Positions 5,429-59,933 of a stretch of 64,000 bases of DNA are shown in pieces. The notes beneath the pieces were generated by a model, which had not been told where the DNA came from, did no database searches, and worked only from the letters and a program-made list of their open reading frames with translations. The stretch is taken from the IMG/VR virus record IMGVR_UViG_3300021255_002539, positions 320,001-384,000 of that record; one strand, given 5' to 3'. The first letter of the stretch is position 1, and each line of letters opens with the position of its first letter. The stretch comes from a virus (lineage: Duplodnaviria; Caudoviricetes). A program made the position numbers and the translations under genes.

Positions 5429-5502
5429 GACATTAATGTGTTGATGATTTAGATATATATATTTACAAAAAATTTTGATTATCGTATAATTCAATAGATA
5501 TC

Positions 5503-6069
5503 ATGGACATAGAACTAAAGCTGATAGAAGACGAACAGGGAAGGGATCTCGCCAAGAACATTGTCGAGAAACACCATTCCTATGTTCCGACATATAAATC
5601 TGTCGGTCGCAGGGTGGATTGGCTCGTCTACATAGATGGCGAACTGTGTGGCATGATTGGCATTGGCAGTTCCACATATCCGCCCTGCAAGGACATTCTT
5701 CGGCACTTGGGCATGACCAAGGACGACTACAAGGAGCAGTTTAACTCGTTCGCCAACAACTGGAGGTTCTGCATGATGAAGTCGGTGAAGAATGCTGGAA
5801 CCCAAATACTCAAGCAATTGAGAAACAAGGCGAAGGTGGAGTGGAAGCGGAAGTATGGCGACGACTTGAAGTACCTCATCACATTTGTCGGGGCTGGGCA
5901 CAATGGGGCAGTATACCGAGCCGACAATTGGAGCTGCATTGGCAAGACCAGCGGACTTCCCTCACACAAGTCGGTCTCCATGAAATGGGACAACGGAGAG
6001 CAAATCAAGGAGAAGTTCGTCAAGCCCACTGGCGAGAACGCAAAGCTGATATTCTTGAAGAAACTCTAA
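5503..6069 (+). CDS. DUF4338/DruA-like (Mom/GNAT-like) protein
   Basis: HHSY..GR..WLV...GMIGIGS...NNWRF...W..KYG..L.TFV...GAVYRADNW..IG.T.G pattern. Confidence 0.65.
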   Translation: MDIELKLIEDEQGRDLAKNIVEKHHSYVPTYKSVGRRVDWLVYIDGELCGMIGIGSSTYPPCKDILRHLGMTKDDYKEQFNSFANNWRFCMMKSVKNAGTQILKQLRNKAKVEWKRKYGDDLKYLITFVGAGHNGAVYRADNWSCIGKTSGLPSHKSVSMKWDNGEQIKEKFVKPTGENAKLIFLKKL

Positions 6070-6085
6070 AGGAGAGAAACAGACG

Positions 6086-7123
6086 ATGATAGACTTTGAG
6101 GAAGACATATTGGAGAACACTGGAACGGGGGATTTCGCCCCAACAAGGGAAGCTGGTCTCTGGGTGACGAAGTACAGACCACGCACATTGGAGCATTTCT
6201 GCCTTGACGAAAAGCTCAAGACGATGTTCCAGAGGCAAATTGACGAGAACGATGTACAGAATGTATGTTTGGTTGGTGGTCCAGGGATTGGAAAGACGAC
6301 ATTGGCCCTGATTCTGGCCAATTCAAGCAAGGATTCTGACATATTGTTCGTTTCCTGCGCATCTGGCGAGGGCAAGGTGGAGTCGATTCAGTCGAAGATT
6401 ATTCCATTCTGCCAAAGCGCATCCAAGGGCAGGAAATTCGTGATACTTGACGAATTGGACTCCGCTTCCTCCACGCAGGCAAACTCATTCCAAAAGGCGT
6501 TGAGGAATGTGGTCGAGGCATATCCAGATTGCAGGTTCATAGCGACCGCAAACTATCAATCCAACATCATTGGGCCGCTTTGCCCATCAAGGCTTCCACC
6601 TGTGTCCTTGAGCTTCTCTGTTTCAGAAATGATTTCCAACCTGCTCTATATTCTAAGCGAGGAGAACATAGAGATTGTGAGCGAAGCCAGCAAGACAAAG
6701 CAGTTTCTCGGGAGCCTCATCAAGTCCTACTACCCAGACATGAGAAGCGTTGTTGGTCAACTTCAAGCGGCTTGCGTCGGTGGGAAGTTGGATGTGGAAA
6801 GCATCGCCATCAACAACAAGGAGGCAATCAAGAACGCAATATCGGAGTTTCTGGCTCTGGTTAAGTCCTCTGGGACTCCACTTGAGATGCGCAAGGCGTA
6901 CAACAACCAGATCCTGGCGTTTGGCAACAATGGCAACTTGTCGAAACTGTGCAGTCCATTGGGGTTGGCAGAGGAGATTCTGAACTACATAATCGAGAAC
7001 CACAACGCCAGCATGGAGGACTTGATGGCATTGGTGGAGTACATCTACAAGATTGAAAGAAGTGTTGACGGTGAAACACAATTCTTCGGCTTCTTGCTCA
7101 AAGTGAAATCAATGGCATTATGA
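6086..7123 (+). CDS. Clamp loader AAA+ subunit (T4 gp44 / RFC-like)
   Basis: WVTKYRP, Walker A GGPGIGKT, Walker B ILDELD, SR arginine finger, YPDMR. Confidence 0.9.
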   Translation: MIDFEEDILENTGTGDFAPTREAGLWVTKYRPRTLEHFCLDEKLKTMFQRQIDENDVQNVCLVGGPGIGKTTLALILANSSKDSDILFVSCASGEGKVESIQSKIIPFCQSASKGRKFVILDELDSASSTQANSFQKALRNVVEAYPDCRFIATANYQSNIIGPLCPSRLPPVSLSFSVSEMISNLLYILSEENIEIVSEASKTKQFLGSLIKSYYPDMRSVVGQLQAACVGGKLDVESIAINNKEAIKNAISEFLALVKSSGTPLEMRKAYNNQILAFGNNGNLSKLCSPLGLAEEILNYIIENHNASMEDLMALVEYIYKIERSVDGETQFFGFLLKVKSMAL

Positions 7124-7707
7124 AGTTCAACATCAGATTGGAGCAATGCAAGCGCACAGATCCCCGATACAAGGAGATTCGGGATCGTCACTACATCCCA
7201 AACCACGGGTGCATAGGTCAGCAAATACACTACCTCGTGTTCCTTGAAGACGAAGTTGTGGGCATCATATCGGGCGCGTCTGCCGTGTATGCTGTAAAGG
7301 CAAGGGACGACTACTTTGGGCTGAACAAGGACAACAAACGCCCTGGGCTGAACTCAATCATCAACAATGTGGTGTTCCGCCTTGAGAAGAACATCAAGAA
7401 CCTTGGTTCTCAGATTCTGGCGTTGTGGAGAAGGACGATAGCAAGGGACTGGGAGGCGAAGTATGGGGTCAAGGTACATGGCTTCGAGACCTTCATCATA
7501 GGCAACGAGGTCAGGTTTGGGGCGTTGTACAAGGCGGACAACTGGACATTCGTTGGCATGACAGCGGGAAGCACCAAGACGCACAAGGGCATCAACAACA
7601 AGGGTGGCAGGCAGGACACATGCCAGAAGATGATATTCTGCAAGAAGATCCCAAAGACGAAACTTTGCTCCGAATACACCTCGACTTGGCGTGGAGATTC
7701 TGTATAA
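7120..7707 (+). CDS. DUF4338/DruA-like (Mom/GNAT-like) protein, second paralogue
   Basis: RHY...G..IHYLV...RDDYFG...INNVVFRL...DWEAKYG...ETF...GALYKADNW..VG.TAG. Confidence 0.7.
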   Translation: MKFNIRLEQCKRTDPRYKEIRDRHYIPNHGCIGQQIHYLVFLEDEVVGIISGASAVYAVKARDDYFGLNKDNKRPGLNSIINNVVFRLEKNIKNLGSQILALWRRTIARDWEAKYGVKVHGFETFIIGNEVRFGALYKADNWTFVGMTAGSTKTHKGINNKGGRQDTCQKMIFCKKIPKTKLCSEYTSTWRGDSV

Positions 7708-7733
7708 TTGAAGTAACCTAAAAAGTGAATAGC

Positions 7734-7790: not shown

Positions 7791-8441
7791 TCAGCCATTT
7801 AGGTAGCAACCACAGGCATACTCCCTCTGGAACTTCTCCCAAATGTCGTCGTCCCAGTCTCTTGGGTCTCCCAGCGCCTCCACATCAGGCTCATCTTCAG
7901 CCATTTCGTGCGCCTGTTCGTAGATGTCACCACAGAACAGCCAAAGTAGAATTTGGGCGAGTTCGTTGTCTGTCTTGGATTCAAGTTCCTCCTTGTCCCA
8001 GGCACCGTACTGCTAAAGATGTTCAATTGCAGCCTCCCTTGGCAGACCAACATCGAACTTGAGATCGTCCACCCACATGGCAATCTCATCGTCCTTTGAG
8101 CCTGGTCCTGAGCAGTCAACCACGCAATAGCCAGGAATTGGCTTCGTGAGTTCATAGGAGTTTCCGCCAATCTTGTGAAACCACTCAGACTTCTGTTCAT
8201 CAACCGACTCCTCGAATTCCTCTGGTCCGTCGTATGCGGTGTAATCCATCTGACCAGCCAATTCCTTGATCTCGTAGAAAGCATCGTCTGCCTGGTGCTT
8301 CCAATAGGTCTTCTCCTTTATGTCGTCGTCTGCCGTGGCAATTCCCATGCCCTCGCAGGCCTTGCCATATTCTATTACAAGCTGAATGAGCTTCTTCGAC
8401 TGCTCGTTGTTGAATGTCGTCTTTTCGTTGAACTTCCTCAT
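7791..8441 (-). CDS. Hypothetical protein, 1 in-frame TAG (8013)
   Basis: Readthrough gives AIEHL[Q]QYGAWDKEEL...LLWLFCGDI and ends at TGA 7791. Confidence 0.7.
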
Positions 8442-8467
8442 TGTAGTTTCCTCTCGTGTAATGTTAT

Positions 8468-9217
8468 TTACCATGTTTGTCCATATCTGTCTATGAAGTC
8501 CTGTCTTGCCTGCCTTTGCATTTCGAGTCTTTGCTTGTCCTCCTCGGATTCCACCGCTGGCGCATTCATCTGCTGCTCCAACCCGCTCTTGTCCAATATG
8601 ACGAAGTGGGTATATGCGCATGTGAACGAGTGTTGTATCTCGTCAGTTTCAGAATACGACAATTGCAAATCAGAGAACGCCTTGATCCAGCAGTTCTTGA
8701 ACCTGAACGCCACTATGGGCTTCTTGTAGGGCGATAGCAAGGTAACATCAATGTCGCACACATGTGTCAAACCATTGGCATCCACATTGCCAGTGTCCAG
8801 CGCATTCGCACCCTTGTTCACAGGGGCGTTGTTCATGCACCAGTTGTACAAGGCCCTGTAATCCGTCCAATCCGAGCGGATGAAGTAGTTGAAGGTGATT
8901 TCCTTGCTTCCAGGTGACATTGTATATGTTGGTCTCTCTATTTCGATTCCACGATAGGACACCTTGTCAGTTCCCATCTCTATTGATGGGATTGTGAAGG
9001 TCGAAAGACGGAGGTTCACATTCTAATAATCGGGGCCTAAAACAAGATATAACGGAACATCTGCTATCCACTTGTTTTTAGCGGCGAACGTGTTCTAATC
9101 CGATACTCCATCAGAGGCTGGAACATTTACACCCGGATATACCAACTACTAGTTCCTGTTGAGGTTCCTAGTCTAGTTTGGGTGTTGGAAGTGATTTACA
9201 TTACTTGGTACTGCCAT
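8468..9217 (-). CDS. Tail completion / tube terminator-like protein (T4 gp3-like fold), 5 in-frame TAG
   Basis: GGAGGTG SD before ATG 9217; core TIPSIEMG...YRALYNW...VAFRFKNCW..FSDLQLSY...FTCAYTHF. Confidence 0.6.
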
Positions 9218-9392
9218 CGTCTTTCACCTCCTGCTTGTTCTCTTCGATGAAGAATATCCCATTCTCGAAATCCCTTCTGGCCTGCTCCAACTGGTTCAAA
9301 TCCTCTATGCCATCCGCATCACGCTCCATTTGCTTGCGCAGCTTATCGAATTCCTCTGGCGTCATGGTATAGAATCTGACTGGGTTTCCCAT
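9201..9392 (-). CDS. Small hypothetical protein
   Basis: GGAGG SD; GTAAATA upstream. Confidence 0.6.
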   Translation of the reverse strand: MGNPVRFYTMTPEEFDKLRKQMERDADGIEDLNQLEQARRDFENGIFFIEENKQEVKDDGSTK

Positions 9393-9477
9393 GGTGGTAG
9401 TGTCCTCCTTGTTTGGTACTATTTACCATCAGTGCGACGAAATGGTAAATGTATTGAACAACACAAAGCAAAGGAAT

Positions 9478-9740: not shown

Positions 9741-11417
9741 TCAATCTTCCGCAACGCAGATATCGTAGTATTCCTTGAACGCCGATTCGCACTTCCTCAT
9801 GCAGTTCTGGAAGAACTCCATTCTGTTCACCCTGTCCTGGCGCGTGTACTCCCACAACCTCTGGCGGAACTCGTCGAATGCTGCTCCAACCTCAGCCCAT
9901 TCGTCGTCGTATGATTCGTTGACCAGTTCATCCTAGTCGATGTAGTCGTATTTGTCCTTGATTCTGGTAAGACCCTTGCTTACTATTCTGTCGTGGGATA
10001 TGCCATCAGGGGACAGTTCCAACTCAGAAGGGACGACCTCGTTGCCCTTTCTGTCCTTTGTCGCAAGAACGTCGCACATTTCGTCTGATGTTGAATAGGA
10101 CATCCTTTCGCCCTCGAAAGAGCCAACTCCACCATCAGAACCGATGAAGAACACATATCCATCTGGCGCGATTACGGTATACCTTTCGTAGAAGTCGAAG
10201 TCTGGACCAAAGTCGAAGACATGCCATTGACCATCTCCAACAGAATCATCTTCCTCGTTGTTGTCTTCAATGGACTCGTCATATTCCTCGTTTTCGTCGT
10301 CAAGGTTTTCTTCTTCTTCCTTCTCGGCGCGGTCGTAGATGCTCTGGTGTCCGCCATTTACTGCGTCAGCCAGGTCAGGCGCATTGAGTTCAAGCTTCTC
10401 TATGTCACCATAGAACTCCCTGCCTTCAACACCAACATGGTCAGACTCGATTGGCTTGTCCGTGGGCAAGTCGGCATGTACCCATCCCCAACCATAGTCA
10501 AAGGCAATGTCCATTTCCTGATTCTCAAGTTCATCGTGGAGTTCATCGTCGGCTTCGTCTTCGTCGTAGCTGTTGCAGGAATATGCAATGGTGGCGACAC
10601 CGCCATCAATCTTGGCATATGCCTTGTCTCCAATTTCATGCTCTTGCCAGAAGAAGTCGTTGTAGTAGTCCTCGGCTTCAACTTCGTATTCGCCAGGGAG
10701 GATTTCAACCTTGCATTCGTGGTAGCTCTCGTACTTCTTCTTCTGCTCAATGTACTTCTTGTCCAGAATCTTGCCGAACTTCAAGCCCTTGATGCGAACA
10801 GTATAGCCAGCACCAGCACCTTCCTTCACGAGCTTCTTTGATTCAAGCCCCAATTTCCTCTTTGTGTATTCATCAGCGTTCTCGGCGATGTCCTCCGCCT
10901 CAATCATCGTTCTGCACTGCCCTATGTTCAAGCCATTCTTGTTCGTAACAATGAAGCAATCTCCCATATCATGGATATTGCATCCATTTGCTGCTGGAAT
11001 GACCTTTCTGCCCGCTTCCTTGGCAAGTTTCTTGGATTCTGCCATTCCCGCCTTCCTCTTGTTCCACCAATCCTTCAGTTCCTTGTTGGGGTCGTCCAAA
11101 TGTACTGTCTCGCCAACATCCAATTCCTTCAACTGCTTGGTTGGAATATCCTTGTGACCATAGGTGTGGAGGAATGAGTGAATGTGGGTAAGGGTCGTTC
11201 CGGAGAGGTAGTCGTCGAGAAGCGAGAAGTCCTGTCCGTTTCCGTCTTCACACCTTTCAATCCTGGCAACTGGAGTGCCGTAGGAAATGAGAGTGAAACC
11301 ATCTCCATCGTCCTCTACATACGCCTTGCGTCCAAATGAGGCGCGTCCATTTGTGGGTTCAAGCTCCTTTCTGACATTCTCAGTCACGGGCTTTTTCGTT
11401 TCGTCTATGTGTTTCAT
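9741..11417 (-). CDS. Acidic hypothetical protein, possibly a head-internal protein, 1 in-frame TAG (9933)
   Basis: ATG overlaps the upstream TGA; readthrough continues 63 codons to TGA just before the terminator; repeated ESKKL.KE motifs. Confidence 0.7.
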
Positions 11418-12019
11418 CTTTTTGCTTCCTCGTTTTTCCAAATTGCTATTACAGGGGCTTCTTCTTCCTCCACATCGTCGTCAAGGACAATCTCGAATTG
11501 TCCATGCATGTTGTTCTTGTCGATGTATTCGTCAGATATCCTGGGGTCTTCGTACTTGAATATCTAGCCGAATTTGTCCACCAAGAAACCCACAACCTCG
11601 TCGTAGAACAAAATTGCAGAATCGCACTTCTCATCGTAGTCTGGGTCATACTTGTCGAAGTCGAACCAACATATGATTTGGTCGTCATGCAAGGTGATGT
11701 TGGTCTTGATGAAGTTGTCGCTGAACAACTGGCCATTGTATTCCCTTGCCACTGCGTGGTATATTTCGTCCAATGTGGGTTCTTTTGATGTGATGTACGA
11801 ATCAAGCATCTTCTTTACAACATCTGGGTTGAATTGGCACCAATCCTCGAAGTCCCTCAATTTCTTGTCCTGTGGGTATTTGCTGAGGTATGTCGCCTCC
11901 AGGTCGTCGAAGAACGCATCTGGGTCTATTGTCTACCCTTTGTACACCAGAAGTTCCCTGGAATCGTCGAATGTGACTCCTGGGATGCCATAGAAGCCGT
12001 CTTGTTGTAGTTTGTCCAT
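11414..12019 (-). CDS. Hypothetical protein, 2 in-frame TAG (11933, 11564)
   Basis: Readthrough ends in an ATGA overlap with the next gene; GTAAATA upstream. Confidence 0.75.
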
Positions 12020-12045
12020 GATAACATTATTTACAAAAAACGCTA

Positions 12046-13882: not shown

Positions 13883-15400
13883 ATGGCTATTACGACGACA
13901 ACAGACAACAAATCTACATTCTTCAAGGAGGAGCTGTCAGACAAGACCCTGGAGTTGATGCTGTTCCGGGAGATGGTGCTCAATTCTGACTTCATGGACA
14001 AGATCTCCAATGTAGTCGACTTCAGGTGGTTCAGAACACCATGCATCCAGTTCATGGCGAAGTTCGCAGTAGGCTACTTCAAGAAGAATGGCATATTGGT
14101 GACCCGGGACATAATGGAGTCCGTAATCCAGAGGGTCAACGAGAACCAAGCGATTGCTGCGAACAAGATTGACCTGAACGCCGCCATGTTCGACTTCAAC
14201 AAGGCAACAACGCTGAACCTGGGAGAGATGTCCGACAAGGACAGAATGGCGAAGATCCAGGAGTATGTGAAGCAGGAGGCGATGAGGAACGCCCTTCTGG
14301 ATTCCGCAACCGACCTGGAGCGCAAGAACACAGATGGATTGGTGGAGAACACGCTGAAGAAGTTCGACGACATCCAGAAGTTGGTTTTCGAGGAACTGGA
14401 CTTTGGAGTTGAGATGTCATCGGATGAAGTTGACAATTCCCTTGAAGACCACATCGACTTCCTCACGAATCCATCTGCGAGGATTCCGACTCTTTGGAAT
14501 TGCCTGGACGACGTGACGCATGGTGGCTTCTTCAAGGATGGCAAGTTCCTGGGTGTGTTCATGGCTCAGGCTGGACTGGGCAAGTCGAACATCTTGGCGA
14601 ACCTAGGGTACAACTTCCTCAAGCAGAACCTCAAGGTTGTGGTGATCTCGATGGAAATGAGCCAGAATGTGTATCTGCGCCGATTCGACTCCCTCATCTC
14701 CAAGATCGACATCGACGATTTGGGGTTGTCCAGCATGGTTGGTCAGTTGAAGGACAAGGTAGAGAGGTTCTACAAGCAAGACTACCCAGGGGCGAGGCTC
14801 AACATCAAGGAATTTCCACCAAACAGCAAGTCAGCGAAGAGCTTGGGGCAGTATGTGGAGAAATTGGTGGTCGCGAAGGGTTGGAAGCCGGATGTCCTCA
14901 TAGTGGACTACCTCAACCTGCTCAAGCCGAATGCTGGTTCCTCCCATGGCGATTCCACGATGTACGAAGATGGCAAGGCGGTGTCCGAGGAACTGCGCAA
15001 GTTGTCGTATGACTTGTCCATTCCCATAATAACTGCGGTCCAGTGCAACTCCAGTGGCTTCAACACCGCCGACATTGGAATGCAGAACATAGCAGAATCC
15101 AGGGGAATCGCCCACACCGCCGACTTCATAGCTGGACTCTACCAAACCGAGGACGAGCAGGAGCAAGGGGTGTTCCACATGAAGATATTGAAGTCCAGAC
15201 TGGGCGAGAGCAAGAACCTCAAGTTCGAGTTCAACAAGCGCACGATGGAGTTCACCGACATCAACGATGTTGACGATGGGATGGAAGCTGTGAAGGAAAG
15301 CGTTGATCAGGGCAAGAAACCGACAACCAATTCACTGACCCCTGTCAGATGCGAAGTCGACGACAAGGATCTGTTCATGGGAGACTTGGGGATGCCGTAA
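13883..15400 (+). CDS. Replicative DnaB-family helicase (T4 gp41-like)
   Basis: AQAGLGKS, ISMEM, IVDYLNL, TAVQCN, IAESRGIAHTADF, KSRLG. Confidence 0.9.
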   Translation: MAITTTTDNKSTFFKEELSDKTLELMLFREMVLNSDFMDKISNVVDFRWFRTPCIQFMAKFAVGYFKKNGILVTRDIMESVIQRVNENQAIAANKIDLNAAMFDFNKATTLNLGEMSDKDRMAKIQEYVKQEAMRNALLDSATDLERKNTDGLVENTLKKFDDIQKLVFEELDFGVEMSSDEVDNSLEDHIDFLTNPSARIPTLWNCLDDVTHGGFFKDGKFLGVFMAQAGLGKSNILANLGYNFLKQNLKVVVISMEMSQNVYLRRFDSLISKIDIDDLGLSSMVGQLKDKVERFYKQDYPGARLNIKEFPPNSKSAKSLGQYVEKLVVAKGWKPDVLIVDYLNLLKPNAGSSHGDSTMYEDGKAVSEELRKLSYDLSIPIITAVQCNSSGFNTADIGMQNIAESRGIAHTADFIAGLYQTEDEQEQGVFHMKILKSRLGESKNLKFEFNKRTMEFTDINDVDDGMEAVKESVDQGKKPTTNSLTPVRCEVDDKDLFMGDLGMP

Positions 15401-17225
15401 CTGGCATGGATGCCGTAAGCAATTCCTGCTCATCTTCGGTTATTTCCTTGCACTCCCAGATGTACACCTCTATGTGTGGTGGTATGTTGTCGTGTGGAAT
15501 CGTGACCGTGTGCGTATTCGACGATTCTGGGTACTCCAATGGGGACATCTGGTAGTTTACCTTCACATTCTTCACAGTGTTGGTTTCTGAGTACTCGTTC
15601 AGGGTTCCAATTGGGGTGGTCTTCACATTGACTACTGCGGCCTGTTTCCCACTGATGCCCCCTTGCAGCCAATCTTGACCTTGTGTAGTGGACTTTTCCT
15701 CCAACGTCTCGTCGTGTGTGTGGATTGGAACATTGGATTCGCGCAGACACACATATTCCTCCCCGAATCTCCTGCCCAACTTCGCGGCCTCGTCCACTCC
15801 CCGGAGGAAGTTCTCTATTCTTCTCCACCGCTTGCCACCATAGTGGTTGATTACCTTTTGCTCTATGTCGTCTGTGGTGGATATGACGACCCTCCCAACA
15901 TATGTCAATGGCCTCACAGACACGAGCAACTACCGAACCAAATCGATCTTCCCACCAATAACCTTGATTTGCTCCATCATCTTGTGGCAGCGGACATTGA
16001 ATTCCTGTCTTGATTCGAGCAGTACATCCAGGAATGGGGTCAGAATCTCGGAAATGGATCTTCCATCCTCCCCCTTGAGTTCCCTACCAGCAACATCTGT
16101 GAATATGTCCAAAAGCTGACCAACCCCCTGCCGCATCATCTTGATGTCATCCTCAATCGAATCTTCCTCAATCTGCAACCGAAGCAGACAATCGGATGGT
16201 GTAAGGTTCTCCACTTGGTATTTCACCAGTCCATTTACGGTGCTCGACTGGTATTGGGCCTCCACCATCGAATCCTTCTTGACCTTCAGTGGTTGCCCAA
16301 CAACATCCCTGCTTGATGAGGATTCCTGTTTGATGGTGGTATATGGGAATGTCACTGCCTGTCGTCCGATGGATGTATTGTTGCTGCTTTCCATGTACTT
16401 GACATATACATTCAGGCAGGGAGGTACATTGTTGTGCCTCTTGTTGGGGGTTCTCCAGTCCAGGATGTTCTGACCATAGAGTGGGAACGTGAGTTGGTCA
16501 GTTGTGGAAGAATTGCATTTGATTGGGTGAACCCGAACCCCCTTTGGAGAACCCCTGTTGTCGTCTTGGGAGACCAATTGGTAGTTCCCCTATGCGAATA
16601 TGCCCAGAACATCGCCACCCAGTTTGTTTCTGGAAATTGGCACGGTAAGGGTTTCTGCCTTCGTATTTGGGTGGTCATGACTGGGAACCTGCCCGACAAT
16701 GGATTCCTCAAAGTCGCTCTGGGGTAGTTCTGCTCCAAATGTCTGACACCATATCTGACCAAGTGCCTTTTTGAAGTTTTCGTATTTCACCAAATCAGGA
16801 ATGGCCGATTCCTTGATGGATTGGATTTCGGTGGCACCAGAGTAGTTCAAGACACCCTTCCTTCTCAATTTCAGAATGTCGTTGTCCAGTCGTTCCTCCA
16901 ATTGGTCGAGTCTAGTCTATAGGTCCGAAATGAAATCCTCTGCAACCGATCTTCTAGCATATTGGGTGAATTGCCCAGCAAGATCCTTTGGCTTCACTCC
17001 TGTTGGATCCAAGTAGGGATGTCCCTGCTAGTCGAACTTCACCAGTTGTCCGAATATGGTCTGGTAGAACTCGTTGAACATCTGCCATTGGGTGACTGCG
17101 ATGTATCCACGAGGCTCTTCCTGCATGGGGAAGAACAAGAAGCAATCGTTGTCGTTGCTGGACAGCGAAAGGTCCAGTACGGAAATCGGATTTACTCTGA
17201 GGTATTCTCTTACATCTATGTTCAT
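15375..17225 (-). CDS. Baseplate/tail-associated protein with gp10-C-like modules, ~616 aa, 4 in-frame TAG
   Basis: Four ORF fragments share one frame, separated only by TAG (17028, 16917, 16590, 15930); YVGRVVIST..GGKRW...HDNIPPHIEVYIW and an internal HNNVPPCLNVYV repeat. Confidence 0.7.
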
Positions 17226-48369: not shown

Positions 48370-48379
48370 ATTGTCAAAT

Positions 48380-48455: not shown

Positions 48456-48462
48456 GATGAAA

Positions 48463-48642: not shown

Positions 48643-48645
48643 AAT

Positions 48646-48731: not shown

Positions 48732-48737
48732 ATAAAT

Positions 48738-48815: not shown

Positions 48816-48828
48816 ATTGAAATCTTAA

Positions 48829-48902
48829 TGGTAGCGAGTGAGGTAGTCGAAACCCCATTGAAGGATTATGATTCCCCTGTTCTGCCGTTGAACTAACTCG
48901 CC
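48829..48902 (-). tRNA. tRNA-Met/Ile2(CAU)
   Basis: Loop ATCATAA. Confidence 0.8.
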
Positions 48903-48905
48903 ATT

Positions 48906-48983
48906 TGGAGCTGGAAGAGGGTGACGATCCCACCACCTGCGGTTTACGAAACCGCCGCTCTACCAAGCATGAGCTATTCCAGC
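48906..48983 (-). tRNA. tRNA-Thr(CGU), canonical size
   Basis: GCGGT-TTCGTAA-ACCGC. Confidence 0.85.
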
Positions 48984-48994
48984 ATTGAAATCGT

Positions 48995-49073
48995 TGGTAG
49001 GGATGATGGGATTCGAACCCATACTACGATGACCCTGAATCATCCGCCGACTGCCAAATTGGTCTAGTCTCCC
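48995..49073 (-). tRNA. tRNA-Leu(CAG) with short variable loop
   Basis: GATGA-TTCAGGG-TCATC. Confidence 0.7.
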
Positions 49074-49079
49074 ATTATC

Positions 49080-49153
49080 TCCCGATGGAGGGAGTCGAAC
49101 CCACAACCAGGGAGTTTTAAATTCCCCTGCTCTGCCAATTGGCATACATCGGG
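49080..49153 (-). tRNA. tRNA-Leu(UAA) with short variable loop, CCA not encoded
   Basis: GGGAA-TTTAAAA-CTCCC (31:39 mismatch). Confidence 0.65.
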
Positions 49154-49199
49154 TCTAACACAGACAAGGAACAATGAACAACGAACCACAACAACAAAT

Positions 49200-49283
49200 T
49201 GGTGTGCGATAAAGGACTTGAACCTTCACATCTTTCGACACAGCCACCTCAAGGCTGCGTGTCTGCCGTTCCACCAATCGCAC
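49200..49283 (-). tRNA. tRNA-Leu(GAG)
   Basis: CAGCC-TTGAGGT-GGCTG. Confidence 0.9.
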
Positions 49284-49516
49284 AATAAAGGCCGCACCTA
49301 CCTCCAAAGTGGGAGTCGAACCCACGGGCAACACGTCTGCGCCCATGCCGATATTTGGAAGTTTTGTCCCTTATGAGACGCGCCTGATGCAAGGCGCAAC
49401 ATTGAAAGCCATCTTCTGACCTTTACATACGCAGTTGGAGTTGAACCAACCTCTCCTCCCCATGAGGGGAGCAACTATCCGAGAATACGAAAGGTGTGGA
49501 CAATCAATGCTTGAAA

Positions 49517-49591
49517 TGGTAGAAGCGACAGGTGCTGCCCCTGCATATCACATCTTAAGAGGATGTTGCCTAGCTGCTCGGCCACGCTTCC
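49517..49591 (-). tRNA. tRNA-Lys(CUU)
   Basis: ACATC-CTCTTAA-GATGT; T loop GGCAGCA. Confidence 0.85.
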
Positions 49592-49646
49592 AAAAATTGC
49601 TCCCCAACCTATGTTGGCACGAACCATGAGTTCGGGAACATTGAAA

Positions 49647-49737
49647 TGGCTCGGGTGAGAGGGTTCAAACCTCCAGGGGCGCAGTTTGCGTCTCGGCTTA
49701 ACAGGCCGTGCCGTTATCAGTTACGGTTTACACCCGA
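49647..49737 (-). tRNA. tRNA-Asn(GUU) with long variable arm
   Basis: CGGC-CTGTTAA-GCCG; G73. Confidence 0.75.
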
Positions 49738-49745
49738 ATAAATCT

Positions 49746-49820
49746 TGGAGCATCGTACCAGTGCTGCCCTGGTCTACTTCAGCTTGGAGGGCTGACGGAC
49801 GGCTGATGTCCCAACGATGC
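49746..49820 (-). tRNA. tRNA-Gly(UCC), C33
   Basis: TCAGC-CCTCCAA-GCTGA. Confidence 0.8.
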
Positions 49821-49828
49821 ATTTGAAA

Positions 49829-49916
49829 TGGTCCCGAGAGTGAGACTCGAACTCACACGTCTTTATGGGACAGCGGATTTTGAGTCCGCCAAGTCTACCA
49901 GTTCCATCATCTCGGG
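49829..49916 (-). tRNA. tRNA-Leu(CAA)
   Basis: GCGGA-CTCAAAA-TCCGC. Confidence 0.9.
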
Positions 49917-49923
49917 TTGAAAT

Positions 49924-49997
49924 TGGTCGGGGTGAGTGGAGTCGAACCACCGCCGTATGAACCCAAATCATAAGTGCTACCGTTATACCACACCCCG
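49924..49997 (-). tRNA. tRNA-Pro(UGG)
   Basis: TATGA-TTTGGGT-TCATA. Confidence 0.9.
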
Positions 49998-50521
49998 TTT
50001 GAAATTGAAAAGGTCGTTCTCAAAGGCAATCTATCGTGTTCTGGACAACACGGGTCAATTACTCCCTAGTTGCTTTCTCCCAGATACATGAATGTGTCTT
50101 ACTAATTTACGCGCAGGCACAATGTTGCTCTAGACCAATCGCAGGCCACTTGTGGGTTTTCTGCCCAATCCGTGCTTCTTACACCATGGAGCAATTCGAC
50201 TTGCCTTTGATTCATCGCATGAAAAACCAACTTTTACCTTGTTGGACTCGAACCAACCTCTCCTCCCCTGCCGGGAGGCGTACTGACCACTAATACGAAA
50301 GGTGTGGATTTCCATGCTAAATTGAAGTGGCTGTATCTCGCAGTCATGCCACATTGAAATTGAACAAGGCACTATTTGGATGACAAGTATCCAAAAGATT
50401 CCCAGCTCCGAACCGGGCGTTTCAATAACTAAGGCATAGACTGTCCATCTTGTCATAATGGTCATCTACACCCATAGCGGAGGCGTTTATCTCCTCAATC
50501 TTGTCGTGCCATGAAATCTAC

Positions 50522-50604
50522 TGGTAGCGGGTGACCGAGTTGCACGGTTGCTTTCGCACCAGGGTATGAACCTGGCAAGGGCGCTGCTCCCTAACACACC
50601 CGCA
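50522..50604 (-). tRNA. tRNA-Met(CAU), initiator-like 1:72 mismatch, with small V arm
   Basis: CCAGG-TTCATAC-CCTGG. Confidence 0.7.
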
Positions 50605-50730
50605 CTCTTGAAATAGCAAAACCATTCGCTTTAGACCCAAGGTTCTCATCTGAGTTTCCTCCAAGGGCTGACTCGCGCATGAGTATTCCCACATGGGGAA
50701 CAGTCTTTCCATCTTTCTTTTCCTCTATGT

Positions 50731-50850
50731 CAATTATCAAAGATCGCTTGTGATTGCCTTGCGTGGTTCAAGCAAACCTTGCTTTGCTTTAGCAAACCTT
50801 GCTTTGCTTTCACATCACATATTATACCACATTTGACTGGTATTTGTAAA
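50731..50850 (-). promoter_or_regulatory. Array promoter P2 plus boxA-like element
   Basis: CCCCC-TTTACA-N18-TATAAT, then GATCTTTGATAATTG. Confidence 0.7.
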
Positions 50851-50875
50851 GGGGGTTTGAAAAGTTTTTTGAAGT

Positions 50876-50952
50876 TGGTTGGGGTGACGGGGCTCGAACC
50901 CGCATCCCACGGTTTAAAGGACCGTTGCAGAATCCACTTTTGCTACACCCCA
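50876..50952 (-). tRNA. tRNA-Lys(UUU), C33
   Basis: ACGGT-CCTTTAA-ACCGT. Confidence 0.8.
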
Positions 50953-51102
50953 TCTGTTGAAATCCACTAAAAGCGCAAGCTCTAGACCTGGGGCTAATGA
51001 CTTCCTCCCAGGAAGACTCGCAATGCTCTACGCTCAGTCTTTACTTCTATATCCCACGAAGTTTGCTGGTTCTCGTGAACCCTCAAACATCTGTCCTAAA
51101 TT

Positions 51103-51228
51103 CAATTGTCAAAGATCAATGTCCTTGTCCCTGGACACTTGGGGTCTCAACTTGATTGATTCACTTGTGAATCCTCTCGTCTCAACGCTGCATATTATAT
51201 CATATTCTCTTCATGCTTGTAAAGGGGG
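51103..51228 (-). promoter_or_regulatory. Array promoter P1 plus boxA-like element
   Basis: CCCCC-TTTACA...TGATATATAAT, then GATCTTTGACAATTG. Confidence 0.65.
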
Positions 51229-51244
51229 TTTCCTAAAAAACTTT

Positions 51245-51274
51245 TGGGATGACCTTTTTCTTTTTAGGTCATCC
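51245..51274. terminator. Hairpin insulating the array from upstream genes
   Basis: tgggatgacct...aggtcatccca. Confidence 0.6.
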
Positions 51275-51636
51275 CATCTTCCTCGTTTTCCTTGAAGGAT
51301 ACTCTCTTTACTCGCTCGTCCTTTTCTCCTTCTTTTACTATCCTCGGTTGATGTTCAGACCCACATGTTCTGATGCTTTCTTCGCCTCGTTATCTACCAA
51401 ATTGCGCTTCGTGCTGCCACAATACTGAAGTCGGGACTCGGCAAACGGCAACATGCCATTGGCTATCTGAGACATAAATCTCAGATTACCATGGTTCAAT
51501 GCGCCAAATTGCTGTGTCGTCATCGTCATGTTTTGTCTATCTATCTTTCTTTCCACCTTCTTCGGTGTTCGTATATTATTTACACGGAATCACTCGAAAA
51601 CCATGCTTCAATTATACGAAAAGTTCAGGAAAATTT

Positions 51637-54630
51637 TCAGGAGTTGTTTTTTGTTGTGTTCCTTAGTTCCTCCAAGTCGGCATCGCTTGACAAGAACGCA
51701 TCTTCTTCCTTGTCTGGGTTGCGCATGAACTCTGCGTCTGGCTGGGCGAATTTACCACTTACGAAACATCTTGGATCACTTACCAATGTACTCAAGACTG
51801 TGTTAGAAGAGTTCTTCTCAATGTTGTTTTTTAATTCCCATATATTATTGTTTAATGTGTCCCATTTATTATTTTCATTATCTATTATTTCACATACCTC
51901 ATCAAATATTTCTTCGGCATAGATATCCATATCGTCGTTATCAAATTTATCCCAATCAATGTTATCGGCCATCCAAATCAACCTTTTCCTTGGATCTGTA
52001 TTTGGTTCATAATCTTCGTCGTCAGTTGAAGGTTTAACATAATCCATTACATTCAGTGAGTAATTGGCGAATATATTTGTAATTTTCTCAGTTATGTGTT
52101 TTTTCAATGTTAAAAAATTGGGCCAAGAGTTATATCTGACAAAATTACAAAGAATCCCATCTATGTTATGCAATATGTATCCAATGAAACTGTTGTGTAT
52201 TCTATATCTTTTTCCAAATACATCCGGGGCGATGAAGTTGTCTATATAGGAATTCGCCGGTGGATATATATATTGCCCACTGTCGTTTTTCCTATAGTTT
52301 CCATTTGAATCTTTATATGGTTCTTGTTCATCCCTCGAAAAATAAGTATTTCCATTGTCTCGTATGTCAGCCAGAATATATGGCTATAAGGTCTTCCAAT
52401 TTTCAACGAACCTGTCGCTTGGGAGAAAATGACACATTAGTTCAAAATTGTTTATGTAAAATTCCTCTATCAGCTTAAATGCTTTTGTCCTGTACGCAAT
52501 CATGAAATTGTTGAAATTCTATGCTATATCGGAGCAATGTTTTGATTGTTTAATGATCTTGCGTAATACTGGCCAAGCTGCATATTCGCAGTTCTAATAA
52601 TATGGTTTTCCATTTACAAGAACTCTCTCGATATTTCCAATACCTGTGTGTGTGGCATTTGCGTCAAAAAACGCCATTGTATCTGTATATCCACAAAATT
52701 GGTTTAAGTTTGTGAATATATGACTATTTGGACTTCTTCTACTGTAATTATCTCGTGTAATACCCTATCCAAAACAACAATGATCAAATATCAAGAATTT
52801 CGTTATACTAGAAAGATTGGTGCAGAGAAAGTGGAGTTCATCAAGAGACTCGCCAGTCCACCACTTGTTGGGGTTATCAGATGAGCAAATATATGAACAA
52901 TCTTTCTTGGAATCTATGTCGTTATATTCTATTCTGGAACCATGACACTTTAGAAATTCCACCCTAAAAGGCGAGTCTGTTTTACAATATTGAACTATTG
53001 CGTTTTTATCTACTCCATCCTAAAGATTGGCCGAAGCATAGATTCTGGTATAGTAGTGTTTACGATTCCAATCATCATCTACAGCCCCATAATTCTTATC
53101 TAACTTTCTATGCAAGTACTTATATCCTATATTGTCTGGAAATCCAGTTGAGTCTTTTGATCCAAATGAACCACCACCCTTTGATGAATCACAATGCAAA
53201 ACAAATTCCACAGCTGCCCAGGGTTTGACTATCGGTATTACAATTTTATTATATAATTTGTCTTCGGGAATAAAATCCTCATTGTGGCAAATTCTAACTT
53301 CATTTGAATCCCATGCTACACTGTCGTCCTCGCCAACTTCCCTTACATACCAATAGTCTGTGAATCTGTGAAATAGTGAATTGCATTTCGCAATTTGTTC
53401 CAAAGACAATTGTTTTTTACCTTTGGTTACTTGTCTAACTATGTTGTAGTATCCAGATATGGGATAATTGTAATTTAGGTTAAATAGACAAACCCATCTA
53501 TGCTTATATGGGATATTTTGGACATCTTCCCCATTTTCTATATATCTGTTCAATCTGTCGTCGTCCGGGCGGGTATTTCTATCAATATCCTTGTTCCGAA
53601 TATAATCATAATATGAGTTGTACAAGAACTTTTGCGTATTGCGCTTTTCCAATACTGTACTCTCATCTCCAAATAAAGTCTTGGGGAGAGTTGAATAGGA
53701 AACTTTTAGAAGTGATTTTCCACATTTATACCTTGTTTCATCAACAAGATTATATTCATCGCTTTCGCCATATGGAAACGAAGCTTGAAAAATCGCCAAA
53801 AATGCATCTATATACATCAATATTGTTTTTATGTTTTTGCAATCTATTCGTAGTCCAAAGGAATTGTTTATTGTACAACTATACCCCTATATAAAATTGC
53901 TTTTTTCCTCCCCAAAATGCCCAATATATGAATCTTTTGGAACATCGGGATTCCTGGTCCCAATGTCAAATTGATGCACTTTTTCCCTTACAAGTTGATT
54001 GTCTTCATTTGTTGGGGACGAATAGTCTCCTTCCGTGTTATACAACCAATCAAAACCCAAAATATTTGTATATGTGTGTGTATTTCCAGTGTGTTGTCTA
54101 TGTATAACTATTTTTGGATCCGCCCCTTCTTCCCAGGTGAATTTGTAAAACAAGCACTCGTCGCACTAATCATTGCCAATAATTTTCAATTGCATATCTG
54201 TTTGTTCGGCAATGATTTTAATATGACTAATCATATTACGTGAATTTAAGGGCTCCGCGTCCACTTTCTTAACAAACTCCCAGTCATCATCAATATGTAT
54301 GCAACTTGATAGATATTCTTTTCCATTGGAGGTATACTCTCCCCTGTCTCCCAATAAATTCATGCTTCGGGTTTCCCATTGAGGTTCATAGTCAGGCTAA
54401 TCCAACGATGATGTATCTTTGACCAAACATTTGAGTACATGAACTCCGGGATTTGGCTTGAACAAAACAAACCATTTGGTGTTTGTCACTACACTTTCTC
54501 CTGAGTTGTTATACATTTTTCCTCCAGGAATGCGAATTATGCTTCCGAATTCACTTCCTTCCTCAAGTATCACTTGATTGGTTTCAAAATATGTATATTC
54601 AGCCATGGATGTGTACCTCGTATATTGCAT
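51637..54630 (-). CDS. Large hypothetical protein, ~997 aa, with 8 in-frame TAG
   Basis: Six ORF fragments plus the gap 52174-52764 read in one frame with only TAG interruptions; TAATG coupling at start; ends TGA. Confidence 0.75.
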
Positions 54631-55967
54631 TATTGGTCTAGTTCTTCGTTAAATGGTACTTCATATAGATATGGTAGCGATTTATCATCTGGGGTTTCTT
54701 CGTTGATAATCACAACTTTATTTGGTATTCTTGCGTCCGCCGGGGCAGCTGCTGTTGGTATATCTATATCACTTATGAGATCCGTCCATAGTTGAGTTGT
54801 CATTGTGGATTCGTCATTCCCTGAATATTTTATATTGTATCCCAATTGATTCACCACTATGGTTTCCCATTCAGAATCCAGATAGCCAGTTGAATTGGAT
54901 GGTACTGTAAGGGTCTTGTTGTCGACCAATATTCCCATCTGATACTCCGGTGATGATTCGCCAAAGGCACTCTGCCCCAGACGGGGTGCGGCAACTGCCT
55001 TGGATATGATGTTCTTCAGGTTCAAGCATCCAAATAAAGCCCCCCTGTATATCATAACAAGATTTTTGGGCAATGTGATGCTGGTTATGTTCTTGCAGTC
55101 CTTGAAGCAGAACGATATGATTTCTACCACCTTGTCACCAAGCTTCACATCCCCAACAATCATGTTCGCGTTTGTATTTGTTTCTGGGTCAAATCCAACC
55201 GTTGAAATTCCGAACCGGGACACATTGTCGTCTATCCTTACATTGTATGTTCCAACTTCCCCATATGTGTGCGTAATCTCAGAAAAAACGCTTTGTGCAT
55301 AGGTATTGGTGGTGCCATCTCCCCAATCTATGGTGGCTTGTTCAGAACCCTCCGAAAGTGTTATTCCATTGTGTATGTAAAATGTCTTGTTAGACTCATC
55401 TGTTATCTGGACGGTAAATTGTGTTCCAGTGTATTCAGATTCACTTGGCTCGTCTGGCTCGTTTGGATCGTCTGGATCGAATTGGGGTATTGGATATTGT
55501 TCGTCCAACTCCTAATCCCATCCACTGGGCAGTTCATAAACATGCTTTGAGATCGTGATGTCAGAATTGACGGCAATCGTATCTCCCTCTTTATATGTCG
55601 TCTATCCTATGTCTATTCCACTCATTACGCATTCCTTTATCGTGTATGTCCCCTTCTCAACTACAATGTCCTTTTCCCCACCATATATCCCAGGCAAGGT
55701 TATGTCAGTACTGGACGCTCCCCTAGAATTTGGGCAGATTACTATGTCGAATCCAACTTGATTGTGTATTGTTGCAGGGTTTTGTATTTCAATTGGCTCA
55801 TCTGGTTCATCTGGTTCAATTGGATTGGATGGATCAATTGGTTCGTCCGGATCAATTGGATTGGATGGTTCATCGTCGCTCCATTGTTGGTATGTTCCAA
55901 GGTATATTGCAGAAACCTTTCGATTTCCAATATACAATCCAGATAATCCATTCAAGTTGTTCGCCAT
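54630..55967 (-). CDS. Adhesin-like protein (Pro/Asp/Glu linkers, PKD-like IDWGDG, BspA LRR), 2 in-frame TAG
   Basis: Fragments 55602..55967 and 54630..55508 joined via TAG 55602 and 55512. Confidence 0.75.
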
Positions 55968-56145
55968 AAAAACAAATCTCCATTGTTGTAGAAGTATTTA
56001 CCATAATTGGGTAAATTAACTATCATTATTCCAAAAATGTGGAATGACTGCAGGGGTCCGCAAGCGAATGGGATTGAGGTGGTTGGGTTCAGAGATTTCC
56101 AAAAACCAGGTGAAGTGGGCGGAGGACAGACTCGCAGATACAGTA

Positions 56146-56529
56146 TCAGTTGTCAATGACTGTGTTGGTGTTGGTTGTGGACGACAAGACGCCAGCATCA
56201 ATCTCCCTGAACAAAGTGGCAATCTTGAGCAGGTCGTCAAGCTTGATTGATATTGAGTTGGTTGGTGTTGACGAGTGGAGACCGCCCAGGTTGAAGTTCA
56301 CTGTCTTGTTGCTTGTGATCTCGGCAGACATTGAGTCTATCTATGTGCTGAACCCCCATTTCGTGTATTTCACTTGGTAGCCCTGGTCAACTATGACATA
56401 TTCCACTGGATTGGTCTGGCTGGATTCGGAGTATATTGGGAATGCCAGATTTGGCCGCTTGTCTACAATCACCTTGGCGAAGCATCCTGACAGAACCAGG
56501 GATATAAGCAATATCAGGATCTTGTTCAT
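56146..56529 (-). CDS. Lipoprotein (lipobox LSGC), candidate lysis accessory, 1 in-frame TAG
   Basis: MNKILILLISLVLSG-C; in frame with 56146..56331 across TAG 56341. Confidence 0.7.
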
Positions 56530-57089
56530 CGTTCAAGCTTGCTTGGTTCGGACGCCACCATCTTGATTTCCTGTGTCCCGAATATCTCCGCAACGAAGTC
56601 CTCGAACCTCTCCTTGACATCGTGGTTTCCACCAATGGAGCTGTAGTACTCGAATTCGTCCTTGATTCGCCGATACTGCTTTTGCGTTATCTTCTTCGTG
56701 GCTTCGTGGAAGTCGATTGTCTTGATGATGTCGTCCCTCAAGAGCCAGATGGTACCCTCCTTCGCCTTGTTCATCATCTCCTGGTGGGTTACAGCATTCT
56801 TCTTCTCGAAGTTGTCGAACTTGTCACCAATCTTGTCGCCAATCTTTGACTACATCCAGTGGAAACCAATTATGATGCTGATGACTATAATGGCATCACA
56901 AATGAGGGAGAACCTTCGCGCACTTCTATTGGAGATGTCTGTCTTCTAATTGCCGCAGTTCTGGTTGTATACTGCCCCATCTCCAAAGGTGATGTTCGTG
57001 CCAGTCTGCTTGAAGGAGTCGTCCACATTGGAATGATCGTCCATGCTCAGGTCTGCCGACACATGTGGATTTGTGATTGGAATGTCCAT
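56526..57089 (-). CDS. Holin-like single-TM protein, 2 in-frame TAG
   Basis: TM AIIVISIIIGFHW flanked by TAG 56946 and 56850; LLRDDI...YY.SIGGN..V motif seen in phage holin-annotated proteins; GAGGTG SD. Confidence 0.55.
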
Positions 57090-57191
57090 TTGTATTGTTG
57101 CACCTCGAAGATTGGTTGTTGATGTTTACATTTTTGCGCCTATTATGTAGGTTCTATTATATTTACATTTTTTGCGTGAAAAGAAAACAAC

Positions 57192-57911: not shown

Positions 57912-57932
57912 TGTTGTTTCCCTTTCGTCAAG

Positions 57933-58874
57933 TCAGTCCATGTCCTCACCAACGAGCTTGTCGAGGTTCTTGGCAGGCTTCTGTTCCTCGACTTCCCGCT
58001 CTTCATGCTCTTCTTCTGGTTCTGCGTCTTCTGGTGCCTCGTCAAGTGGAGCAGGCTCGTTGTTTGGCGTCAGAATCAGCTCGGTGACGATTGCCAACAT
58101 CTCCTGGTTCTTGGAGTTCTCGTGGTGCTTGTCGCACTGCTTCTCCACGATGTCAGTGGCCTTCTCGGCATCTCCATTCATGGAGAGTTCGTCGGTCTTC
58201 GCCTGGAGATCTGCCAATGCTGAGAACTGGGCTTTCTTGATGCCCTTGGGGTTGCTCTCCGAGTACTTCATGTTGTCAGGGATGTTCTCGAATATGACAT
58301 CCTCAATCTCTGCGTTCTTCTCGAACATGTCGTTCTTGACGTCGGCGGCCCGTGTAATGTAGTCCGTGATTGTCTTCTTGTCATCCTCGTTGTTCGCCAA
58401 GTCGAGGTTCGTGATTGGCTTGGTGAACCGAATCTCGATGCCAGCGTCAAACAACGCCCGCTTCACCTCTGGGATGAGCCTGGCCGCATAGAGGTTGGTG
58501 ATGATGTCCAGGGCGTAGGTGTCTGCCTTTGGCGGCGTGTTCTCCTTTGGCTTTCCACCCTTCTTGAGGTACTCGAAGTCAGCAGATTTGCCGAACATCT
58601 TCCCAAAGAAGGACTTGAGCGCACCCTCAATCTTCTTCTCGCGCTTCTTCTTGTCCTCGACATCGGCGAAGCCGTTGAACAAGCCAAGCCTCTCTGCGAT
58701 CATCTTGAACTCGTCTGCCACATTGTCGTACATGAACTCAGAGAATTCCCGCTTCATGTTCTTGAGCGATTCCTTGCAGGTGGAGTTGATGTCTGTCTTG
58801 ACCCTGGCGGCGTCGTTGATTACGGTCTTGAGGTTGTCGTACTGATTGTTGATTTCGTTCTGTTCTTCTGACAT
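57933..58874 (-). CDS. Hypothetical helical protein with acidic tail
   Basis: AAAGGA SD; 313 aa. Confidence 0.75.
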   Translation of the reverse strand: MSEEQNEINNQYDNLKTVINDAARVKTDINSTCKESLKNMKREFSEFMYDNVADEFKMIAERLGLFNGFADVEDKKKREKKIEGALKSFFGKMFGKSADFEYLKKGGKPKENTPPKADTYALDIITNLYAARLIPEVKRALFDAGIEIRFTKPITNLDLANNEDDKKTITDYITRAADVKNDMFEKNAEIEDVIFENIPDNMKYSESNPKGIKKAQFSALADLQAKTDELSMNGDAEKATDIVEKQCDKHHENSKNQEMLAIVTELILTPNNEPAPLDEAPEDAEPEEEHEEREVEEQKPAKNLDKLVGEDMD

Positions 58875-59130
58875 TTGGTGTTTTCCTTTCAATTAGAAAT
58901 CTGTGTATATTGGCTTCACTATGTATATCCCCTTTGCCTCTGACTTTATGCTTTGGCTTTTGTTCCTGTCCTCGGCGAATTCGTTTGCGATTCCTTCGTC
59001 CCGAAACACCCCAATTACCTCATGGTTTCCACTGATGTGGTTGATGAATTGCACCGAATACAATTTGTTGATGTTGTCCATTATCCAAGATGCCTTTCGT
59101 TTGAAAGATGCCTTTCGTTTGATGGTTCAA

Positions 59131-59583
59131 TTATACGCCATCCAGTTTGACGAATCTGAGGCACACGCCAGCTTCCTTGAACATTTGGCTGGTGAGTTCT
59201 GTGCTTTCCTTCCACCGCTCCGGTATCTCGGCATCTGGGACATACACGAACTTAATTCCACTTTGGATAATCAAGGCGGCGCAATGGGCGCAAGGTGGCA
59301 TCTTGGTGACATAGATGGAGCAGCCATTCAGATTCTGCTTTGCGAACATTATGGCGTTTTCCTCAGCATGCAGAATCATCTTGTACTTGGTTGCCCTGTC
59401 TCCCAGTCGGTCGTTGGTATCCTGCACCCCAACAGGCAGCCCATTGAACCCCGTGGAGATGACCCTGTTCTGGGAATCCACTATCACAGCCCCAATTTGG
59501 GAAGACGGGTCCTTGCTCCAAGACGCAACCAAGTACGCCATGTCAAAGAACCGCTTCTGCCATTTCGTAGCCAGTTCAGCCAT
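59131..59583 (-). CDS. dCMP deaminase
   Basis: SKDPS.QIGA, TGFNG, HAEENAI, PCAHCA. Confidence 0.9.
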   Translation of the reverse strand: MAELATKWQKRFFDMAYLVASWSKDPSSQIGAVIVDSQNRVISTGFNGLPVGVQDTNDRLGDRATKYKMILHAEENAIMFAKQNLNGCSIYVTKMPPCAHCAALIIQSGIKFVYVPDAEIPERWKESTELTSQMFKEAGVCLRFVKLDGV

Positions 59584-59848
59584 TGTCCAATCCCCCAATC
59601 TTGAGCAGATCTGAAAGCGAGGAATTGGTCTCCTTCATCAAGTTGGACAAGTCCGACACGGCAGAATACAATGCCATCTCCTGCTCCACAGTGAACTTCT
59701 TGGTCTCGCCATCGACGCAATCGTAGATGCGGTCGTCGTCGAACACGCCTGCCCTTTCTGCCTCATCGCGATCCCTTGCCATCTCGGCCAGTTCATCCTC
59801 GGGCAAGTCCTTCAATATGCCCTCTATGTCGTCTACTTGATATGCCAT
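59576..59848 (-). CDS. Hypothetical protein
   Basis: AAGGAG SD; promoter TTTACC-N17-TATAAT. Confidence 0.7.
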   Translation of the reverse strand: MAYQVDDIEGILKDLPEDELAEMARDRDEAERAGVFDDDRIYDCVDGETKKFTVEQEMALYSAVSDLSNLMKETNSSLSDLLKIGGLDNG

Positions 59849-59933
59849 TGGTTTTCTCCTTTTGCTATATTATACCACTTCGCGGTCAAATGGTAAATAT
59901 ATCCAAACATCAACATTCATCTTCATCATCACC

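Follow-up and report, generated by a model that had tools for sequence, protein, structure and literature searches.

Late transcription in the T4 family relies on the sigma factor gp55 and on the promoter TATAAATA at -13 to -6; the box of phage Aeh1 is CTAAATA, and T4-family late boxes vary at their first positions (PMC1524935). In gut phages, stop-codon recoding is biased to late and lytic genes (Borges et al., 10.1101/2021.08.26.457843), and genetic code 15 has been described in Lak and crAss-like phages (PMC6784885, PMC9523058). Here we analyse a short element, GTAAATA, in a 64,000-nucleotide window of phage DNA, positions 320001-384000 of virus record IMGVR_UViG_3300021255_002539, which is 414,060 bp long, carries direct terminal repeats and has a rating of complete. 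The genome is T4-like, with T4-type tail and head genes and an array of 27 tRNA genes plus tmRNA. The switch of genetic code looks wired to late transcription in this phage, because GTAAATA precedes almost exactly the genes in which TAG is read as glutamine (Gln), which extends the known late-gene bias of recoded codons.

The element resembles the T4-family late promoter in being a single short A/T-rich box of the -10 type without a -35 element. The TAAATA core is common to T4, Aeh1 and this phage, the box precedes tail, head-protease and baseplate genes, and a gp55 homologue is encoded. Unlike T4, the phage departs from the exact consensus (T/A)ATAAATA, its box being GTAAATA with AAAT[G/T] upstream; its sigma gene carries in-frame TAGs, many of its units appear nearly leaderless, and gp33 and gp45 were not detected. 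As in recoded gut phages, a phage suppressor tRNA would insert Gln at TAG, the early genes can be read in the standard code, and the recoded modules are dispersed over a large genome. In contrast to those phages, the recoded set is delimited here by a defined promoter class, the late sigma gene is itself recoded, and no phage release factor was found in the genome. The T4-like clade of 414-434 kb matches no clade genome size given in the Borges preprint (10.1101/2021.08.26.457843), which uses neither the word promoter nor the word sigma, and a literature search returned no relevant account of GTAAATA as a phage promoter or of a sigma-factor link to alternative codes.

Promoter boxes and in-frame TAG codons

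GTAAATA occurs 16 times in the window, where 3.2 copies are expected (0 of 100 shuffles reached 16), and 118 times in the genome. In a blind count of all 7-mers within 100 nucleotides (nt) upstream of genes it ranked first, preceding 87 genes against 6.1 expected, with GTATAAT second (79 against 6.4). The copies are far from equally frequent at non-promoter positions: 89 lie wholly and 7 partly in intergenic DNA (96/118), which makes up 9% of the genome, 93/118 lie no more than 120 nt upstream of a same-strand start, and the roughly 22 copies inside genes are the number that chance predicts. The full consensus is AAAT[G/T]GTAAATA, with information content at -5 to +6 and nothing conserved near -35 of the sites; one-mismatch variants are barely enriched. 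Upstream of the gp15-like gene, the only sequence common to seven relatives (72-82% protein identity) is [T/A]GGTAAATA or TAGTAAATA, the remainder of the region being unalignable among them. We consider it very probable from this pattern that GTAAATA serves as the promoter for a class of late genes, with a -10 element only.

Distances from box to start codon are bimodal, at ~3-11 nt and ~18-53 nt, and TATAAT boxes fall into the same two groups, as expected if both are -10 elements and some of their messages are nearly leaderless. Some 19 GTAAATA sites lie 3-11 nt from an ATG. In one group of either class (12028 and 17234 in the window with ~17 other GTAAATA sites, and about 20 TATAAT sites, for example at window positions 36005-36030) the box is 6-11 nt from the ATG, which implies leaderless or nearly leaderless messages; the GTAAATA sites 8-9 nt from an ATG hint indirectly at transcripts that would start about 6 nt downstream of the box. 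The late box also occurs in two fixed arrangements, as a pair of divergent late boxes (TATTTAC-N18-GTAAATA, 10 copies genome-wide) and with an early box facing it (ATTATAC-N17-GTAAATA, 9 copies genome-wide, those in the window being at 5460(-), 25279(-) and 59893(+)).

To relate the boxes to TAG content, genes were called with a purpose-built caller that combines codon log-odds scoring with dynamic programming, permits TAG as a sense codon and applies a per-gene penalty. Units behind GTAAATA were classed as late and units behind a TATAAT promoter as early-type; the tests within the window used a curated list of 16 solid TAG-bearing genes and ~66 others. A sequence-only reading of the window had located 14 boxes, each with G or T at -1 and each 8-70 nt upstream of a same-strand start, and had proposed that they mark exactly the TAG-containing transcription units. 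All 14 coordinates were exact GTAAATA matches on the strands given, with both features present in 14/14. Each of the 16 solid TAG genes in this stretch is the first or second gene after a box, none of the ~66 other genes carries a TAG (Fisher test, p 5e-14), and the genes behind TTGACA/TTTAC-N17/18-TATAAT promoters contain none in frame.

Across the genome the link between motif and TAG is strong, yet it is statistical rather than exact. TAG occurs in 65/130 late-unit genes versus 13/253 early-unit genes, at densities of 3.86 versus 0.48 per 1000 codons, and accounts for 9.3% of Gln codons in late units versus 1.7% in early units. Counted by unit, a TAG gene is present in 49/78 late versus 11/95 early-type units (odds ratio 12.9, p 1e-12). 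The word "exactly" thus held in the window and failed genome-wide, where 29/78 late units are TAG-free and up to 11/95 early-type units have TAG; some of the latter calls are artefacts of the rules, such as a chance TATAAT within a late unit. Late and early units alternate repeatedly on the same strand. The suggestion that early genes stay readable in either code was borne out, TAG being avoided both in frame (240/253 early-unit genes lack it) and as a stop (246/253 use TAA or TGA). Of the seven early-unit genes that do stop at TAG, five have a back-up TAA or TGA 1-14 codons further on, which looks like provision for later read-through.

The association recurs in a complete relative of 418 kb (G002), of which 400 kb were analysed: GTAAATA is again the top upstream 7-mer (81 versus 6.2), and TAG again clusters behind it (62/154 versus 20/263, p 2e-15). 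This genome took the place of a gene-level test on seven related loci of 7-13 kb, which was weak (odds ratio 3.3, p 0.06) because the caller misplaced starts there.

Comparative evidence indicates that TAG is Gln in this phage, and the phage's own predicted suppressor tRNA(CUA) would decode it. Reading through TAG yields 453 genes at 91% coding density, compared with 574 genes at 86% under the standard code; 280 TAGs lie within 89 of the read-through genes, and TAG is the terminal codon of only 16 genes. In a first calling pass, in which read-through genes were split, 47/74 TAG-terminated pieces continued into a gene in the same frame, and family matches to gp15 and to the tail tube extend across TAGs. 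In orthologue alignments, window TAGs face Gln in 26/41 cases and the relatives' TAGs face a window Gln in 23/42, while the second codon of the gp15 gene, TAG in this phage, is CAA or CAG in 7/7 relatives. An alignment of the sheath, with its TAGs in variable columns, did not identify the residue, which the comparison of gp15-region orthologues did. Recoding of TGA or TAA was considered and rejected, the TGA-coding stop-to-stop open reading frames (ORFs) being noise that overlaps on both strands.

The tRNA(CUA) candidate lies at 297902-297980(-) of the genome, ~36 nt after a CGTATAAT box. It folds into a cloverleaf with the anticodon loop CUCUAAC, a T loop of an unusual 8 nt and a CCA end that the gene itself encodes. 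ARAGORN fails to report it, and within the window neither ARAGORN (with and without introns) nor Rfam, applied to the tRNA array, gave a tRNA(CUA). Searched for at the DNA level, the suppressor tRNA turned up in 1/4 related records, and an exact search with its anticodon arm matched six other contigs.

A late sigma factor with TAG codons

The gp55-like sigma gene that the sequence-only reading had sought elsewhere in the genome was found at 79305-79961(+). Its product is the only match to phrog_234 (late sigma; E 3e-17); it aligns with T4 gp55 by BLASTP (2e-8) from T4 residue 5 onwards, and its best solved relative is gp55 in PDB 7D7C, chain F (1.6e-5). We regard this factor as the probable reader of GTAAATA. 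The gene stands behind an early-type promoter, and its codons 23 and 25 are TAG, just before the conserved domain. No ATG or GTG lies between these TAGs and the domain, and the sole start codon downstream, a TTG near codon 50, would cut into it. In five relatives the sigma gene has one or two TAGs at codons 23-29, their positions shifting, behind an invariant GTATAATT box. The sigma-gene leader also holds an invariant TATTTAC, that is, an antisense GTAAATA, in 6/6 genomes (L004:19230-19245, equivalent to genome ~79237(-), and L027-L031); it points back through the sigma gene's own TATAAT promoter and could provide negative feedback or promoter interference.

The reading that we favour, with reasonable confidence, is that GTAAATA is the late promoter of a TAG=Gln phage, most likely recognized by host RNA polymerase with the gp55-like sigma factor, and that the whole forms a feed-forward AND gate. 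Host-type TATAAT promoters would drive the TAG-free early genes, the suppressor tRNA and the sigma mRNA. Sigma would be made only once suppression works, because its mRNA has two TAGs just before the conserved domain, and would then switch on short GTAAATA units of 1-4 genes whose messages again need suppression. The suppressor tRNA would in this way be required for sigma and afterwards for the sigma-driven messages. The data themselves establish that the motif is enriched, how it is placed and that it is conserved, that it goes with TAG, that TAG stands for Gln, and that the sigma gene and the tRNA are present; the reader of the motif, the transcript starts, the timing and the action of TAGs as a lock are the parts that we infer.

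This circuit modifies the double lock of the sequence-only reading, in which late genes need both a phage sigma factor and a code switch. Promoter class and code switch are indeed linked; the two locks are not independent, however, because the sigma gene itself needs TAG read-through. What we propose instead is two locks in series, with the code switch placed ahead of both late transcription and late translation. A regulatory lock is hard to tell from passive tolerance of TAG in genes that are expressed once the suppressor tRNA is there, and the case for a gating role of TAG is about evenly balanced: the TAGs retained in the sigma leader argue for a gate, whereas the late genes alone are equally well explained by passive tolerance. 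Somewhat more tentatively, the arrangement may act as a coherent feed-forward timer, in which an early suppressor tRNA is needed for sigma and then for late messages and to which the antisense GTAAATA may add negative feedback.

Several findings, set out in this paragraph and the next, weigh against the feed-forward reading. The late and early classes come from a home-made gene caller and simple motif rules, and the T4 form of the box, ATAAATA, is not enriched (14 copies in the genome, only 2 upstream of genes). The TAG codons might also be a passive by-product of expression timing with no part in gating, the late promoter being real and CAG/TAG drift being tolerated once the suppressor tRNA is abundant and purged from early genes. 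TAG positions turn over between relatives, with TAG against TAG in only 3/41 comparisons and most aligning to Q, which suits neutral CAG/TAG drift. TAG makes up just 9% of Gln codons in late units, and many late genes have none: 29/78 late units are TAG-free, and the TAG-free late genes number 65 where a uniform rate predicts 44. We nevertheless judge this explanation rather unlikely, for it does not sit well with the sigma gene. In 6/6 genomes this gene retains one or more TAGs within codons 23-29, although not at a fixed position, which suggests that selection maintains a TAG in that stretch. The gene is also under an early-type promoter, a class in which TAG otherwise accounts for few Gln codons (1.7%).

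The identity of the reader is open to a second challenge. The genome encodes two more sigma-70-family proteins, one with region 2 only (250057-251124(-)) and one with regions 2 and 4 (309490-310278(-)); both genes are TAG-free and lie behind early-type promoters, and either product could recognize GTAAATA while the gp55-like protein serves another promoter class. A sigma factor with region 2 alone would suit a promoter that lacks a -35 element. Moreover, searches of the genome gave no match at E 0.1 for gp33 (phrog_254) and none for the gp45 clamp (phrog_223, PF09116, PF02916), control genomes being silent in both cases; a divergent gp45-type clamp is likely, since a clamp loader is encoded (window 6086-7123, phrog_168, 1e-45). 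Such a change of reader seems improbable to us in view of the TAAATA that GTAAATA has in common with the gp55-read T4-family late boxes TATAAATA and CTAAATA (PMC1524935), the position of GTAAATA at the head of orthologues of T4 late genes, and the lack of any further over-represented box for the gp55-like factor to use. The box always lies on the sense strand shortly before start codons, and it might instead work in the RNA of 5' leaders, marking a processing site or affecting translation or stability. We consider this highly improbable: in ~19 cases only 3-11 nt remain before the ATG, too few for a leader element; the box pairs back to back at set distances with TATAAT boxes (N17) and with a second copy of itself (N18); its distances to start codons parallel those of TATAAT -10 boxes; and it resembles the T4 late promoter.

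Boxes and genes of the window

Late units of the window encode the gp15 sheath stabiliser, the tail tube, the prohead protease, a gp10-like protein and BspA/PKD repeat proteins, and the tail sheath gene, elsewhere in the genome, also falls in a late unit. Early-unit functions comprise a DnaB-type helicase, the clamp loader, a DNA methylase, a GMP-reductase/IMPDH-type enzyme, CoaBC-type flavoproteins and a radical SAM enzyme.

The first box, at 5460-5466(-), lies 31 nt before the ATG at 5428 of a 406-residue gene (4208-5428(-)) with four in-frame TAGs, after which comes an early TTGACA-N17-TATAAT promoter at ~4160-4195. Back to back with this box, ATTATAC is the TATAAT box of the plus-strand gene at 5503, and in the early unit at 5503-7707(+) the clamp loader is flanked on both sides by Mom/DruA-like proteins. 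The box at 8465-8471(-) is 23 nt from the start of a 216-residue gene with one TAG (7791-8441(-)). At 9420-9426(-), with a degenerate divergent partner GTAAATG on the plus strand, the box is 27 nt upstream of a TAG-free 63-residue gene (9201-9392(-)), which is followed by the gp19-like tail tube gene (phrog_45; 8468-9217(-)) with five TAGs. Nearly leaderless units start at 12028-12034(-), 8 nt before the ATG of a 201-residue gene with two TAGs (11414-12019(-)) that precedes a 558-residue gene with one (9741-11417(-)), and at 17234-17240(-), again 8 nt before an ATG, that of a 616-residue gene (15375-17225(-)) with four TAGs. The product of the last gene matches the baseplate gp10 C-terminal domain weakly, and there is coding signal in each segment between its TAGs.

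On the plus strand, the box at 20383-20389(+) is 30 nt before the ATG at 20420 of a gene for a 274-residue BspA-type repeat protein (20420-21244(+)) with three TAGs, whose repeats lie past the first of them; downstream are a terminator hairpin and an early promoter. The protein begins, at window 20420-20470, with the same N-terminus, MI(T/N)INKLVT, as a second BspA-type protein behind GTAAATA at genome 406234-406285, and the two late proteins are paralogues that share this head piece.

The box at 25279-25285(-), with ATTATAC 17 nt upstream in the early/late cassette, stands 14 nt before a TAG-free gene (24839-25264(-)), behind which a 394-residue gene (23671-24855(-)) has two TAGs; its orthologues in seven relatives hold TAG too. 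Third behind this box is a probable TAG-free gene of 229 residues with a GGAG ribosome-binding site (22964-23652(-)), overlooked by the caller; a TAG-bearing ORF at 23258-23524(+), a weak call, was rejected as its antisense shadow. At 27586-27592(-) the box, 18 nt from the start, is the sole conserved upstream block, across seven relatives, of the gene for the T4 gp15-like tail sheath stabiliser (26431-27567(-), three TAGs). A tandem of early and late promoters, with TATAAT just upstream of the box at 29551-29557(+), lies before the prohead core protease gene (Peptidase_S77; 29588-30325(+), one TAG), 30 nt from its start. The box at 36571-36577(-) overlaps the stop codon of the upstream early gene and is 66 nt from the start of a 163-residue gene with five TAGs (36013-36504(-)), a lone late gene within a long same-strand run of TAG-free early genes.

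The box at 51577-51583(-), 27 nt after a CGTATAAT box at 51611-51617, heads a doubtful 73-residue ORF with one TAG (~20-49 nt from box to start) and then the tRNA array. This array (41600-51620(-)), with the tandem of CGTATAAT and GTAAATA at its head, has at least eight early-type TATAAT boxes on its own strand. One of its members, reported by ARAGORN as "tRNA-???" with a two-base anticodon (47853-47926(-)), reads as a normal 7-nt loop, GUCAUAG, which would give the anticodon CAU, for Met, or for Ile2 if modified.

Behind the box at 55995-56001(-), 27 nt from the start, are a gene for a 445-residue PKD/BspA-LRR protein (54630-55967(-)) with two TAGs and a 997-residue gene (51637-54630(-)) with eight, which lies in a 35% G+C island and has no Pfam or PHROG match; the composition of the latter looks foreign, yet adapted to the phage code. 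The box at 57160-57166(-) is 70 nt upstream of a 187-residue gene with two TAGs (56526-57089(-)), followed by a 127-residue gene with one (56146-56529(-)), and the box at 59893-59899(+), likewise with ATTATAC 17 nt upstream in the early/late cassette, is 34 nt before a 79-residue gene with one TAG (59934-60173(+)). The remaining copies, at 40468-40474(+), with no gene downstream, and at 63915-63921(+), lie inside minus-strand genes and are probably chance occurrences, because about three random matches are expected in the window.

Phage timing and mixed genetic codes

If the feed-forward reading is correct, the late sigma factor and the code switch, two layers of phage timing, are joined in one circuit, and the late-gene bias of recoded stop codons gains a concrete and testable mechanism. 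The association also offers an annotation rule for mixed-code phage genomes, in which promoter class predicts the genes that need code 15, and it points to a natural expression cascade gated by amber suppression that could be rebuilt in laboratory strains.

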